A DNA stretch of 64,000 bases, taken from Pseudobdellovibrionaceae bacterium (GTDB lineage: Bacteria; Bdellovibrionota; Bdellovibrionia; Bdellovibrionales; Bdellovibrionaceae). The position numbers are program-made. The DNA lies in NCBI GenBank assembly GCA_039810425.1, contig JBDHWW010000016.1, positions 1 to 64,000 of the forward strand, read 5' to 3'. Positions 30,001 to 39,000 of this stretch are shown here, in pieces (within the stretch, counting starts at the first letter, position 1; each line of letters starts with the position of its first letter).

Positions 30001-33000
30001 GCAGATGTTCCTGATGCTTGGCCCGGATCCTTTGAAAATTAAGGATTATTTGAAGGCGCATCCGAACAAGTCGAAGCAAGACACGAAAGAACTTGCGGAG
30101 CTTAAAGAGGAAGACGAAGATCAGGACGAAGAAGACTAGGGGCCGGAGGGTCACAGAGTGGAGGCCCCGAGGGCCGAAGCGGAAGTAAATAGTTGCCGGA
30201 CTTTTAAAGTCAAAAAACCGGGGCCACAAGCTCCGGTTTTTTATTTTCGTGGGCCTGAAGACGTGCGGACCGGTAAAAGCCCGCGAATGAAAGGAAAAGA
30301 CAATGACAACAAATATTGCATGGATCGTTCTTGTTATTGCCGGGGTGTTGGAATTTATCTGGGCTGCGGGTCTCAAGCAGTCTGCAGGTTTTACCAAGCT
30401 GGGGCCGTCAGTTTTCACGCTGGCGGTGATGGGGGTGAGCTTCTACCTGCTATCTCTTTCGATGCGCGTTTTGCCGATTGGCGTGTCTTACACCGTGTGG
30501 ACGGGGATTGGGGCTGTGGGCTCCGTGATGGTGGGTTATTTCTTTTTTAATGAAAGCTTAGGCCTCGTGAAAGCGGTCTGTTTGCTATTGATCATTGGGG
30601 GCATTCTGGGTCTTAAGTTCTCAGAGAGTTAAGGCGGCGAACATTTGTTTACGGGACCGAGGGCTAGAAACCTTGGCACCAAAGAGCCGCCACTTGGTTT
30701 CGCGATCATCCGCTTCTAAATTATTGAATTGGAGGGGCGGGCGATGGTGTTAGGGATGACAGCCGAGCGCTGGATGGCGTGCGGTTTTTTGATTCTGGGT
30801 TTTAGTTTGTTTTATTTCGGATTTTTCCGCCCGGCTTGGTTTTCGCGGAAGGCTCAAAACCAAAAGCCTTCTTTCAAAGACGAATCCTACTTCTGGCAGG
30901 TCTTCCCCTACGGGTTGTTCTTCACGATCGCGGGATTGACTTTCATCACCCAACCGAGCGCCAGCAGCTTGATGGTTGCTTTCTTTTGCTCTGCGTGGGT
31001 TAAGATTCTCTACAAATTCGTCTAAATTAAGGCCCCGGCGCAGACCGGGCCGGACCCCGTGGTTCTCCGGCGGCTCCATTGGTTTTTGCGGCATTTACGC
31101 ATCGTATATAAAAACTTCAAGTCTTGATAAGTCCTTAAAAGAGCTTGATTTTCAACACGCCACAGCCTAAAACAATCACCTCATTGTCACTGATAAAGGC
31201 ACCAACAAGAGCTTAGACATCCGTTTAAGACGCCCGTATCGGAGGAAAGATAACTATGAAAATGCGTACGCATTCAGGCGCTAAAAAGCGTATGAAAGTG
31301 GTTGCCGGCGGCACCAAGATCAAAAAGAAAAGCACACGTCTTCGCCACTTGAACTCCCATATGAGTTCAAAAACAAAAAGACAATTGGGTAAAACTTCTT
31401 ACGTAGAAAAAGCAAACTTGCTCCAAGCAAAGCGTTGCTTGGTATTCTAACGTTAACCTCTCACAAGATAGATAATCGGAGTAAAATATGGCTCGTGTAA
31501 AAAGCGGTAAAACAAATCGTGCTCGTCATAAAAAAGTTTTAAAAAGAACAAAAGGTTACTACTCAGCGGGTTCTCGTTGCTACATCCACGCGGTAGAGAA
31601 AAACGACCATGCATTGCAATATGCTTATCGTGACCGTAAAGTTAAAAAGCGCAATTTCCGCGCTTTGTGGAACCAACGTATCAATGCGGCGGCTCGTTTG
31701 AACGGCACTACTTACTCCCGCTTGATTGGCGGCTTGATCAAAGCTGGCATCCAAGTGGACCGTAAAGTGATGGCTGATTTGGCAATCACAGACGCAGCAG
31801 CATTCGCCGCTCTTTGCAAACACGCTTTGGCGTAGTTTGCAGCAAGCTTCAAGAGTGAGCTTGTAATGTCAGAGTCTTCATCGCAATTCGAAAAGAGAAA
31901 ACAAGATCATATTCGAATCGCCCTGGACCCTCGCTCCCAAGCTGAGGGTCGGTCCGGACTGGACAGCGTACAACTCGTTCACGAAGCGCTCCCTAATCTC
32001 AATTTTAAAGAGGTCGATTCGTCGACCTCTTTTTTTTCTAAAAAGATCTCAGCTCCATTCTTTGTGAGTTCGATGACCGCAGGCCACGACAAGGGCCTCG
32101 AGATCAATTCGCGTCTGGCGAGACTTAGTGCTGAAAAACAAATCCTAATGGGCGTCGGCTCCCAACGCCGCGAACTTGCAGACCCTGAAGCCCGCCAAGA
32201 GTGGAAAGAGGTTCGCAAGCAAGCTCCGAAGGCCTTACTTCTCGGAAACTTAGGCATTGCTCAAGTGATCCGCACTCCGGTGGATCAGATTCGGGCCCTC
32301 GTTGAGTCGCTGGAGGCTGAGGCCTTATTCATTCATTTGAATCCCCTCCAAGAATGTTTGCAGCCGGAGGGCACGACGGAGTTCCGCGGGGGCGAGGCTG
32401 CGATCCAGGCCTTGGTGCAAACGCTCTCAATTCCGGTGATCGTGAAGGAGGTCGGTTGTGGCTTCTCGAGAGACACGCTGAAGCGTATTTACAACCTCGG
32501 CGTTTATGCCGTGGATGTGAGCGGTTTGGGGGGCACTCATTGGGGCCGTGTGGAGGGCTATCGCTCTGAAAAAACAGAGCTTTTATTCCAAGTCGCTCAG
32601 ACATTTGAAAACTGGGGTCTTTCCACAGTGGAAAGTTTGCTCAGCGCCAAAGAAATCGATGAAAAAATCCCAGTTTGGGCATCTGGAGGGGTGCGCGATG
32701 GCCTGCAAGCTGCTAAGCTTCTGGCTCTGGGGGCAGATATGGTCGGGATGGCCCAGCCATGGTTGAAAGCGGCTTTGGAAAGTCCGGAGTCCGTGGACGC
32801 CTTGTACGAAAAATTACTGCTTGAGCTTAGGATTGCGATGTTTTGTACGGGCGTCGCAACGATCGGCGAACTCAAGACGAAGAGGGTTTGGAAATGGCAC
32901 GCACTTTAAGTGATATTTTTAAAGGCTTCTCAAAACTCACCCGCCGTGAACGGTTGGCGGCTCTTGAAGAAACTGGGACTCTTGAATCCCGTGATATCGA

Positions 33001-36000: not shown

Positions 36001-39000
36001 GAAAATCATTGGCAGCAACACTTTAGAGTGATCTCTTCACACCTATGAAAACATTTTCGACCCAGGTGCCTGGTAAGTGGATTCTAGCTGGTGAGCACGC
36101 GGTTTTGCGCGGGGTTCCGGCCTTGGTGTTCCCATTGCGTTCGCGCGTTTTGGATTTGAGCTATGTCTGTTCAAGCGATGCGAAGACTTTGAATTTGTAT
36201 TTGCACGGGGAGCATGGTGAAGAGCTGCAGCTTCTTGTGTGGGGTGTGCTTGAACGCGCCTGCGAAATTAAAAAGTTCCCGCGATCTTCGCTGGTGGGTG
36301 GGTTGACACTGAAAAGCTCGATCCCCGTGGGGGCCGGCATGGGGGCCTCGGCGGCCCTTTGTGTGGCCCTCACGAAATGGTTTCATTTTTTGAACATCGT
36401 TAAAGAAGAAGAAATGTTTGAGTTTGCGCGCACACTGGAAAATCTTTTCCACGGTGAAAGTAGCGGCGTGGATATCGCGGTTTCTTTAAGCGGCCAAGGC
36501 TTGCACTACCAACGCGGTGGTGAGCGCAGGGTGTTGGACCTGCAATGGATTCCGCATTGGTATATCTCATACTCTGGAAAACGGGGTGTGACGCTGGAGT
36601 GTGTGAATAAGGTGAAAGAGCTTATCGCGGGCCATCCAGAGTTGGGATCGGCGATGGATGGGCAGATGCGCACGGCGGTTGCCATGTGTGAAAAAGCTCT
36701 GACCGATCCCAATGAGACGAGGTCCCTAGAGCTTTTGAAAGCTGGCATTGAAAGTGCCGGCGAAGTGTTTGAGCGCTGGGGCTTGACTGAGGGGGCTCCG
36801 CAGACTCACATGGAAATGCTAAGAAAAGCAGGTGCCGTGGCCGTCAAACCAACGGGTTCTGGCGGCGGTGGTTATGTGTTGAGTCTCTGGACAACGCCTC
36901 CGCCTGAAGAGCTTCTGCCAAAGCTGATTCCTTGTTAACATCTGTTACCGTCAGAGCGGTTGAGAACCCAATGGCCGACCCGGGGGCTTTTTACTGGCCG
37001 GCCTCATAGGCCGTGCTGTTTAAGGAAGGGCTCGTAGGTCTTTTTTAGCACGCTTTCCGCTTTTTCAAGCGACACTTCGTCAGGTGAATGAACGCCGTTC
37101 ATGAGTTCTGCAAGAACTTGGTCCTGCAGGCGTCCGGCTTGTTGAACCAAGTGATAGGGAATGAGCGTGTAGGTCACCATGCCGTAGCGGGATTTAAACA
37201 GCGCCGGGAAGTTTTTCTCCAGAAGACCTTCGATCTTTTTACGCAATTGGAATTGCGGATCAGCAACTTTTTCACTCATTTCATACCAGTTTTCAATCGC
37301 CATCTCGGCGATGGCATTGGCGTTGGGGCGTTGGATTTGCTCATACTCCGCCAGCGCTTGGGGCCAACGGCCGCTTGTACGATCTAAGATGGCGAGTAAG
37401 TTCGTACAGTCTTCAAAGCCGGAGTTCATGCCTTGGCCAAAGAAAGGCACGATCGCGTGGGCGGCATCGCCCATCAGTGCCACGGAACCGCCATGGACCC
37501 ACGAAGTGCAACGGACCGTGCCGAGGGCGCCTTGCGGGTTTTTTTCAAAGTCCTCGATGTAGTGAGGCATCCATGCAATGGCATCAGGGAATTCGTTTTT
37601 GAACAAATTCTCGACGTCTTTGGGGCTTTTAGTATTTTCAAAACTCACGGGACGCCGGCTTTTAGGCAGGTACAGAGTCATCGTGAAGCTGCCATCCACA
37701 TTCGCGAGCGCCATCATCATGTGGGAGCCGCGTGGCCAAATATGCAAAGCTTTTTTATCGAGCGCATTCGGGGCCGGCAAGAAGAGCTCTTTGTAATCCG
37801 CGGGCAACCACTCTGTCGTTTCGTTCGTGAGATTTTGCCGCGCCATCTGTTTTCTAACCGCGCTGCCGGCACCATCAGTTCCGAAGAGGACCTCGTAGGA
37901 ATGTTTTTCGGAATTGCCCACGCCGCCGGTGAAGGTCATCGTCTTATTTTTAAAGTCGATATCCTCTAATGAATGCTGGAAGTGAATTTTAGCCCCTCCA
38001 CGCTCCGCTTCGTCGATTAGAAACTGATTTAAAGCGCTCCGGGAAATGGAAAGATTGCGTTCGCTTTCTTTGCCATAGGGTTGATAGACAAGGTCTCCGG
38101 CTTTTGGATGAATCATGCGGCCGTGAACGGGCACCGCGAGTTCCAAGGCCTTTTGCAGAAGGCCCGCTTTGTCGAGGGCGTTCACGCCTCTTGAGGTGAT
38201 CACTAGGTTGATAGAACGGCCGGCTTCCGCGTGGCTTAAGCGCGGGTCGGTGCGTTTTTCAAAAATCGTGACATCGAGGCCCCTTTTTCGCAAGAGCACA
38301 GCCCATAAAGAGCCGACCAACCCCGCGCCGACAATTGTGATTCTATTTGCCATGCATGACCTCTTTAAAAGTCTGGACGAGGCGGTAGATATCCTCATGG
38401 TTGTTGTAAAGAGGCGCCGGGGTAGCGCGAATGATATCCGGCTCGCGGAAATCGACGAAGGCACCCCGCTCACGCAATTTTCCGGCCCAAGAACGCGGCG
38501 ATTCTTTGAAGCGTAAGCACAGCATTGATCCACGTTGTGGCAATGGGGGGGTTACGATTTGAACCTGGCCTTCAAGTTCAGTGCGGATTTGATTCTCGAA
38601 ATAGCTGGTGAGCTTGTCACCCTTTTCGCGCAGTCCTTTGATGGTTGCTTTGTCAAAAAGCTCCATGGAGGCGCGAAGGCTCGCTAATTGGAAAATCGGT
38701 GGATTGCTGAGCTGCCAGGCCTCAATGGTTGGAATCGCGTCGAAGTCCGGGCCCATTTTAAAACGTGTGCTCTTGTTTTGCCCCCACCAGCCTTCAAAGC
38801 GTGGCAGAGCATTTGAACCAAGATGCTTTTTATGAACGAAGGCGCCGGCGATGCCGCCAGGTCCTGCGTTGAGATATTTGTAAGAACACCAAACCGCAAA
38901 GTCGACATTCCAATCATGCAATTGCAAGTGCAAGTTGCCCGCGCCGTGGGCAAGATTGAATCCCGCCACCGCGCCGACACGGTGAGCTTTCTCGGTGATT

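Follow-up and report, generated by a model that had tools for sequence, protein, structure and literature searches.

How does a bacterium that carries a mevalonate operon obtain HMG-CoA when the usual entry enzyme is missing? The question is raised by positions 31866..36938 of the window (the whole 64,000-nucleotide stretch analyzed here), which hold a complete lower mevalonate operon on the + strand. The first gene encodes type 2 isopentenyl-diphosphate isomerase (IDI-2; 31866..32909; TIGR02151, 367 bits, cut-off 281) and the second a class II HMG-CoA reductase (32894..34192; PF00368, E 1.5e-96; TIGR00532, 342 bits, cut-off 260), whose ATG start at 32894 lies in a frame open from a TTG at 32843. 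They are followed by a divergent GHMP kinase (34202..35098), diphosphomevalonate decarboxylase (MVD; 35086..36048; TIGR01240, 173 bits, just above the cut-off of 171) and mevalonate kinase (36045..36938; PF00288; TIGR00549, 128 bits, below the cut-off of 163). All steps of the classical pathway after HMG-CoA, namely reductase, two GHMP kinases, MVD and isomerase, are thus present in one operon, and TIGRFAM and Pfam profiles confirm the five genes and their coordinates as given in the initial annotation, including a kinase said to be invisible to Pfam. The latter, encoded by the third gene, indeed shows only a sub-threshold Pfam match and escapes NCBIfam as well. Its GHMP motifs are conserved (n=15 sequences), a profile search retrieves mevalonate kinases (E 6e-27) and phosphomevalonate kinases (E 7e-7), and its predicted structure (pLDDT 89) leads Foldseek to both kinase types at E ~1e-13; used as a single-sequence query against the PDB, the protein gave no match. 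It is probably the phosphomevalonate kinase, although which of the two kinases catalyzes which step is inferred. In the operons of one family, f12, a gene of 180-225 aa with no family match lies between MVD and mevalonate kinase; it is absent from the operons viewed in other families.

Upstream of the reductase, the genome under study (G000, 99.9% complete) lacks both familiar solutions. HMG-CoA synthase profiles returned nothing (PF01154, 0 matches at E<=10; PF08540, 0) while controls matched, and two true synthases used as queries found only FabH and a FabH-like protein, at E 6e-7 or weaker. IspG was not found by profile search, and the sole DXS-like protein falls below all cut-offs and matches transketolase best. 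The absence of HMG-CoA synthase and, as judged by IspG and DXS, of a MEP pathway thus holds as first annotated. So does the presence of a full leucine (liu) route to HMG-CoA: we found a leucine cluster at C2:68171-73366, isovaleryl-CoA dehydrogenase (IVD) at C12:897-2156, a branched-chain aminotransferase on C62 and a single E1 alpha/beta pair on C11. The set comprises the aminotransferase or leucine dehydrogenase (so named from a Glu/Leu/Phe/Val dehydrogenase-type match only), E1, IVD, methylcrotonyl-CoA carboxylase (MCC; biotin carboxylase, BCCP and beta subunits) and hydratase. The specificities of IVD, MCC, hydratase and E1 are putative, deduced from best matches and the surrounding operon. 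The E1 pair scores below both pyruvate dehydrogenase cut-offs, and its counterpart in Bdellovibrio bacteriovorus 109J is named 3-methyl-2-oxobutanoate dehydrogenase; it may serve pyruvate as well. The C2 cluster also contains HMG-CoA lyase, a competing outlet missing from the initial annotation's list.

Of the known routes to HMG-CoA, we found genes for the leucine route alone. Given no usual entry enzyme and no leucine synthesis, Bdellovibrio and most of its relatives probably build isoprenoids from prey leucine, a reading that published mutant data support. Imported leucine would pass through the aminotransferase or leucine dehydrogenase, branched-chain 2-oxoacid dehydrogenase, IVD with electron-transfer flavoprotein (ETF), MCC and methylglutaconyl-CoA hydratase to HMG-CoA. 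At this branch point the lyase would burn the surplus, while the reductase operon of the window would direct a part to IPP/DMAPP. During predation, prey protein would be the source of leucine. The carbon added by MCC is lost again at MVD, so that the isoprene unit corresponds to the intact C2-C5 and C5' of leucine. Judging flux and enzyme substrates from genes, neighborhood and insertion pattern, we consider it very likely that isoprenoid HMG-CoA comes from imported leucine. As no synthase was found here, the route would be obligate.

Published Tn-seq data for strain 109J (PMC6561027) bear on this proposal; we used Data Set S3 (putative essentials) whole and Data Set S2 (fitness) in part. These data describe growth on peptone-yeast extract rather than within prey, and genes marked ND could not be scored on prey. 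Reductase, MVD and IDI-2 have 0 insertion sites each, and MCC biotin carboxylase is listed as putative essential, with 1 site in 6 samples. In the available part of the fitness data, IVD, hydratase, both E1 and both ETF subunits are ND, as are RpoA and the genes at the positions of both mevalonate-operon kinases; the source portion leaves the label undefined. HMG-CoA lyase tolerates insertions (W 0.40-0.54, with tight replicates), and fitness values also exist there for three other acyl-CoA dehydrogenases, methylmalonyl-CoA mutase, methylmalonate-semialdehyde dehydrogenase and homogentisate dioxygenase. MCC-beta and BCCP are likewise scored rather than ND; their replicate scatter (SD/mean 0.73 and 0.82) compares with 0.56-1.12 for single-copy tRNA ligases and <=0.42 for 43 neighbors in this same portion. 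From scatter alone we infer that both are insertion-poor, a proxy by which the thiolase/SCOT operon (1.63, 1.48, 0.67) and a further hydratase (1.34) would qualify too. For biotin carboxylase, hydratase, IVD, E1 and ETF, the pattern in these partly available data fits a need for the upstream leucine genes but not for the lyase.

We then surveyed 251 genomes of the phylum Bdellovibrionota. HMG-CoA reductase occurs in 188 of the 251, and a true synthase in two of these 188. IspG is found in 58/251 genomes, none of them in a reductase-bearing family, and the listed families that carry the reductase retain it in all genomes sampled. MCC-beta accompanies it in 186/188 genomes (170 canonical, 15 of Bacillus type and 1 split over contig ends), LeuB is present in 1/251 and HMG-CoA lyase in 219/251. 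Co-occurrence alone is weak evidence, since leucine catabolism is also frequent in IspG families (MCC-beta in 12/13 genomes of f19, lyase in 27/30 of f14). Gene neighborhood adds to it: MCC-beta stands head-to-head with the reductase in nine genomes of three families (f22, f26, f28), an arrangement that may reflect one event. All three f22 genomes, which are reduced, have reductase, MCC-beta, hydratase and IVD-like genes, and no PF00682 protein (HMG-CoA lyase) at E<=0.01. No PF00682 protein was seen in the reductase-bearing genomes G038, G046, G054, G003 and G181 (89-94% complete).

Family f12 looked like a counter-example, with canonical MCC-beta in 0/15 genomes, but 14/15 have a Bacillus-type gene. 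The order lyase-hydratase-carboxyltransferase is seen in 7/7 genomes viewed, and the f12 gene is 62-64% identical to two Bacillus records, one of which shows this order in its annotation. In gene order and close sequence match it agrees with the Bacillus yng-type MCC, which we take to have a role in leucine use; its PDB matches fall between PCC and MCC and do not settle the matter. Weaker cases are G239 (97% complete, 170 contigs), which has the operon, no MCC-beta or lyase match and an IVD match of only 38%; G098 (81% complete), in which no MCC-beta was found; and G003, with a best IVD match of 34%.

The initial annotation had stated that isoprenoids must start from leucine across the class. 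Neighborhood, loss of the lyase with MCC kept and Tn-seq support leucine as the start. "Must" is too strong, because a non-homologous synthase lies beyond the reach of homology searches and the Tn-seq reflects growth on peptone-yeast extract. The pattern itself extends well past the class, which nonetheless contains an exception, as G213 has IspG and no reductase. It is likely, if less firmly so than the leucine origin itself, that most Bdellovibrionota have an obligate, synthase-free mevalonate pathway whose sole entry is a leucine they cannot make. All quinone tails and lipid carriers of the cell wall would therefore be built from leucine skeletons taken intact from prey; in certain reduced, lyase-free lineages "leucine degradation", head-to-head with the reductase, would be purely biosynthetic.

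Alternatively, a cryptic or non-homologous synthase may join acetyl-CoA and acetoacetyl-CoA, as the published iCH457 model assumes, the leucine genes appearing essential because acyl-CoA accumulates to toxic levels or because cells on peptone need them for energy. We regard this as improbable. The Glu-Cys-His triad of HMG-CoA synthase is present in both true synthases but missing from FabH and from both FabH-like proteins of G000. One of the FabH-like proteins, at C13:13420-14415, has Asp, Cys and Gln instead; it occurs in only 39/251 genomes and is missing from closed reductase-bearing genomes, and the closed genomes G023 and G100 each have one KAS III protein above cut-off. The earlier suspicion of a synthase among the FabH-like proteins is therefore not borne out, and weak PF01154 matches in G150 and G198 also proved FabH-like. 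Thiolases are present in 18/18 genomes tested, a point in favor of such a synthase, so that thiolase loss failed as a decisive test. The four thiolases of G000, which cover the acetoacetyl-CoA thiolase step of the classical pathway, show ordinary motifs, a point against a cryptic synthase. No thiolase-fold or hidden synthase gene was seen at 80 reductase loci with flanks up to 8 kb. Long reductase frames, considered as thiolase-reductase fusions, proved in the three viewed to be additional reductases that carry an unrelated domain at the C-terminus, and in one case an off-frame artefact. In 109J, thiolase RS06375 and SCOT appear insertion-poor in the available fitness data and Data Set S3 includes many hypothetical proteins, whereas both genes named 3-oxoacyl-ACP synthase are dispensable in that portion (PMC6561027). 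MCC-beta was not seen in G239 and G098, and the iCH457 model, as far as available, has a synthase reaction without a gene; a cryptic synthase would, however, account for neither the head-to-head arrangement nor the genomes without a lyase.

It is even less probable, although compatible with leucine entry, that inside prey the predator salvages mevalonate, IPP/DMAPP or finished prenyl chains and depends on the leucine route only when it grows without prey. For other lipids, the available part of PMC7529429 reports that building blocks are taken up from prey, and the ND genes are unscorable on prey. The lack of insertions in reductase, MVD and IDI-2, however, implies that peptone-yeast extract gives no bypass; an E. 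coli control carries IspG but lacks the reductase, and prey of this kind therefore contains no mevalonate; and the reductase is retained throughout the sampled members of the listed families that carry it. That the lyase runs in reverse, joining acetyl-CoA to acetoacetate supplied by thiolase and SCOT under the pull of the reductase, is about as improbable: the wide occurrence of the lyase, the seemingly insertion-poor thiolase/SCOT operon and the roughly half fitness of lyase mutants on prey in the partial 109J data would suit it, but the enzyme tolerates insertions, is missing from the five reductase-bearing genomes named above and catalyzes a reaction usually held to be one-way in cells.

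Leucine entry has partial parallels. Growing Myxococcus xanthus derives isoprenoids from leucine, and Halobacterium and Leishmania incorporate leucine via mevalonate. The latter two and Calditenuis ramacidaminiphagus, for which a path from branched-chain amino acids to mevalonate has been inferred (PMC12979851, whose available passages do not mention loss of HMG-CoA synthase), are proposed or shown to feed mevalonate similarly but are archaea or eukaryotes. In procyclic Trypanosoma brucei, IVD deletion abolishes leucine label in sterols (PMC5993337, in part). The same five steps lead there from leucine to HMG-CoA and on to the reductase, but flux runs beside a synthase; in the Bdellovibrio group the steps are known from genes and no synthase was found beside them. 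M. xanthus, also predatory, has an HMG-CoA hub of MvaS, LiuC and AibAB, in which LiuC connects HMG-CoA and mevalonate to the leucine C5 pool (PMC5389471, in part); it possesses MvaS and turns HMG-CoA towards isovaleryl-CoA under leucine limitation, whereas the Bdellovibrio group, which lacks MvaS, would run the opposite way only. The classical bacterial pathway (thiolase, MvaS, MvaA, MvaK1, MvaK2, MvaD, IDI-2) shares the one-operon steps from HMG-CoA to IPP/DMAPP but differs in MvaS, absent from 186/188 reductase genomes, and in the second kinase, which here escapes Pfam and NCBIfam.

For Bdellovibrio itself, the genome-scale model iCH457 (PMC7529429) was said to be silent on mevalonate and HMG. 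This is true of its main text, but the supplement tables available list mevalonate reactions, an HMG-CoA synthase reaction that is assigned no gene and has a confidence score of 1, and MCC and hydratase reactions. Like the "prey acetoacetyl-CoA" idea of Pasternak 2013 (as cited in the available part of PMC4451040), the model has a mevalonate route in Bdellovibrio and, unlike our proposal, requires HMG-CoA synthase. Leucine entry gives a gene-level answer to the orphan reaction and, if true, would replace prey acetoacetyl-CoA with a different, testable reason for mevalonate use in these predators, a catabolic pathway having been turned into an essential biosynthetic one. It predicts that leucine supply and the balance of lyase and reductase limit growth on and off prey, which is relevant to culturing and engineering Bdellovibrio. 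Completeness scores that demand HMG-CoA synthase would go wrong on 186 of the 188 sampled genomes that have the reductase. We found no description of a synthase-free, leucine-fed mevalonate pathway in the literature searched.

Beyond the phylum, one scan aimed at named genomes returned only Bdellovibrio-group loci. Coxiella and Legionella show a possible likeness to the synthase-free pattern. One Legionellales symbiont is reported, in the portion of the source available, to have HMG-CoA synthase (10.64898/2026.04.11.717937).

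The mevalonate operon (31866-36938, forward strand) consists, as the initial annotation had it, of five abutting genes, encoding IDI-2, a class II HMG-CoA reductase, a divergent kinase, diphosphomevalonate decarboxylase (MVD) and mevalonate kinase. The window is contig C16 of genome G000, which comprises 3.54 Mb in 149 contigs (completeness 99.88%, contamination 2.74%), and the named records nearest to its reductase are Bdellovibrio-group genomes, with a top identity of 91%. The divergent kinase, third in the operon, has no NCBIfam match and a single Pfam match, below threshold; a 15-sequence profile retrieves mevalonate and phosphomevalonate kinases, and the predicted structure of the kinase (pLDDT 89) has Foldseek matches to both at about 1e-13. 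By elimination, we infer that it is a phosphomevalonate kinase. Because the operon starts 30 bases downstream of a ribosomal protein L20-like gene (within about 31480-31866), which is likewise present at 68 of 80 related reductase loci, the operon may be read together with thrS-infC-rplT. Directly 3' of the operon, a kynurenine/3-hydroxyanthranilate tryptophan-breakdown cluster (37004-44527) encodes an FAD monooxygenase, kynureninase, an FAA-hydrolase-family protein, a cyclase, an aldehyde dehydrogenase, a RidA-family protein, 3-HAO and an amidohydrolase.

The lack of HMG-CoA synthase and the leucine route described initially both stand for G000. Neither Pfam model found an HMG-CoA synthase there, nor did unfiltered searches that started from two true synthases, and IspG, of the MEP pathway, is absent. 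A cluster on contig C2 encodes, in this order, methylcrotonyl-CoA carboxylase (MCC) beta, a hydratase, the MCC biotin carboxylase and carrier protein, and HMG-CoA lyase; isovaleryl-CoA dehydrogenase (IVD), branched-chain aminotransferase (BCAT), a Glu/Leu/Phe/Val-type dehydrogenase and one E1 pair lie elsewhere. The lyase is the sole PF00682 protein of the genome, which therefore has no LeuA. Leucine from prey protein or peptone would be converted through 2-oxoisocaproate, isovaleryl-CoA, 3-methylcrotonyl-CoA and 3-methylglutaconyl-CoA to HMG-CoA, from which the reductase, two kinases, MVD and IDI-2 would produce IPP and DMAPP for prenyl transferases. Since, by established chemistry, the bicarbonate carbon added by MCC is the one lost at MVD, five leucine carbons would pass intact. 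We infer a flux from leucine into isoprenoids; leucine is very probably the main source of HMG-CoA and, for most of the phylum, likely its sole source. A phmmer search returned only two carboxyltransferases in G000, MCC-beta and a PCC-like one (locus L097, 6299-9373, contig C1); the PCC-like pair, listed as essential in strain 109J, probably serves as acetyl-CoA carboxylase.

We surveyed 251 phylum genomes, at least 80% complete and evenly drawn from a larger group, as a single sample for six gene searches; kin among them are not independent. The reductase is present in 188 and IspG in 58, the latter confined to six families that all lack the reductase. The pattern was initially extended to the whole class; G213, a member of the class belonging to one of these IspG families, is an exception. 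The HMG-CoA synthase model matched in four of the 251 genomes: a bacterial-type synthase in G130, two FabH-like proteins, and an archaeal-type synthase in G223 (L264, 1663-4344), which shares a contig of 6.9 kb, in a genome of 410 contigs, with a thiolase and a small partner gene and may reflect transfer or misbinning. The synthase C-terminal model, run on 28 chosen genomes, matched G130 alone; LeuB is found in 1/251. Canonical MCC-beta occurs in 186 genomes, 16 of them in IspG families, hence in 170 of the 188 with reductase. Among the other 18, 14 of the 15 of family f12, together with G003, have a carboxyltransferase of another type (500-514 aa). In f12 this gene lies downstream of the lyase and then the hydratase (7/7 genomes viewed), and its top plasmid-collection matches are Bacillus genes (62-64%), one of which is annotated in this same order, preceded by an acyl-CoA dehydrogenase and a biotin carboxylase. 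In G193, MCC-beta is split across contig ends; none of any type was found in G098 (81% complete) or G239 (97%, 170 contigs), both with reductase. G239 retains an intact mevalonate operon, with no lyase match and a best IVD match of just 38%; IVD-like matches of at least 44% occur in 23 of 26 chosen genomes. Leucine catabolism genes are frequent in IspG families too, so that co-occurrence with the reductase shows the route to be available, not used. Seven f12 loci (L057, 12675-13301, and six more) carry a 180-225 aa gene without family match between MVD and mevalonate kinase. Several f18 genomes encode an additional HMG-CoA reductase-like protein (loci L031, L032 and L034), about 780-820 aa long, whose C-terminal part appears phosphotransferase-like by eye; one of these adjoins an acyl-CoA ligase-like gene.

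In families f26 (5/5), f28 (2/2) and f22 (2/3, the third contig ending too early), MCC-beta and hydratase are divergently transcribed, head-to-head with the reductase and its kinase, an arrangement that may stem from a single ancestral event. The two operons are separate in the window's own group, and none of 80 loci has a leucine or thiolase-fold gene near the reductase. The three genomes of f22, 1.6-1.8 Mb in size and 89-93% complete, contain reductase, MCC-beta, hydratase and IVD-like genes and no PF00682 protein at E<=0.01; if this lyase loss is real, the reductase is the only known exit for leucine-made HMG-CoA.

Duncan et al. 2019 (PMC6561027), in whose main text leucine and mevalonate both go unnamed, generated 90,000 insertions in B. 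bacteriovorus 109J growing host-independently on peptone-yeast extract. We paired its genes with those of G000 through annotation and gene order, not sequence. In Data Set S2, 'hydroxymethylglutaryl' names denote one lyase and one reductase only, and ND, a label without definition in the text available, marks RpoA and most ribosomal proteins. IDI-2, reductase, MVD and the undecaprenyl and octaprenyl synthases have no insertion sites, and both mevalonate-operon kinases are ND. So are the leucine-cluster hydratase, IVD (whose flanking genes have values) and both subunits of E1 and of ETF, one per pair appearing with no sites in Data Set S3, a list of putative essential genes; the MCC biotin carboxylase is in S3 with one site across six samples. 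BCAT and leucine dehydrogenase each tolerate insertions, as expected of two routes for one step. MCC-beta and carrier protein show scattered fitness values, and the lyase has a fitness of 0.40-0.54 with tight replicates. As 12 of 22 tRNA ligase rows have values and 10 are ND, having a value is no proof that a gene is dispensable. The scatter among replicates (SD/mean) reaches 0.73 in MCC-beta and 0.82 in the carrier protein, against 0.31 in the lyase; it spans 0.56-1.12 in 10 tRNA ligases present as single copies and does not exceed 0.42 in 43 genes of the neighbourhood. That steps making HMG-CoA appear needed, and the step destroying it does not, is the pattern that leucine-only supply predicts. 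Downstream polarity does not explain it, since the lyase is last in the operon, provided 109J shares the order of G000. Fitness values are given for methylmalonyl-CoA mutase, methylmalonate-semialdehyde dehydrogenase, homogentisate dioxygenase and three acyl-CoA dehydrogenases other than IVD. Against leucine-only supply, the scatter proxy also flags the thiolase/SCOT operon and a further hydratase, and leucine-gene mutants could also be depleted through toxicity of blocked acyl-CoAs or an energy need on peptone.

An HMG-CoA synthase of another fold, beyond the reach of triad and distribution checks, could exist. These checks speak against the cryptic synthase initially considered possible among FabH-like proteins. 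G000 encodes FabH, two FabH-like proteins, FabF and four thiolases; at the columns holding Glu, Cys and His in both true synthases, the FabH-like protein of contig C13 has Asp, Cys and Gln; in the second FabH-like protein, Glu and His are both absent. The C13 protein occurs in only 39/251 genomes and is missing from the closed reductase genomes G023, G100, G145, G149 and G240, of which G023 and G100 show a single KAS III protein that exceeds the cut-off. At its locus (L096, 7911-13094), the usual catalytic columns read Asp/Cys/Gln/Tyr, and the gene adjoins an acyl-CoA ligase, a short-chain reductase and two hydrolases.

The gene pattern of a synthase-free, probably leucine-fed mevalonate route is real and not an ordinary one. 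Each single reaction is known, and Coxiella and Legionella may have a similar gene set; the obligate form, which contradicts the current Bdellovibrio model, was not found in print for a model predator. The literature searched, which leaves subscription journals mostly outside its coverage, yielded no report of a bacterial route of this kind. In the texts as available, leucine feeds sterols in Trypanosoma brucei alongside an HMG-CoA synthase, unlike in G000 (PMC5993337), a leucine-fed route was inferred for Calditenuis (PMC12979851), and M. xanthus has MvaS (PMC5389471). The Bdellovibrio mevalonate route is noted, and the gap is not, in the accessible parts of PMC5941755, PMC4646340, PMC4451040 and 10.1101/506055; the available text of PMC6107057 and PMC3533463, figures and supplements aside, does not mention the route. 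The genome-scale model iCH457, in its accessible part, includes an HMG-CoA synthase reaction with no gene assigned. Pasternak's suggestion of prey acetoacetyl-CoA, as cited in the available text of PMC4451040, needs the very synthase that is missing here. Elsewhere in the window, 24362-26989 (reverse strand) encodes a lipoprotein-like protein of 875 aa that contains PKD domains and whose C-terminus looks Hint-like by eye; a relative sits near the leucine operon of another sampled genome, G241.
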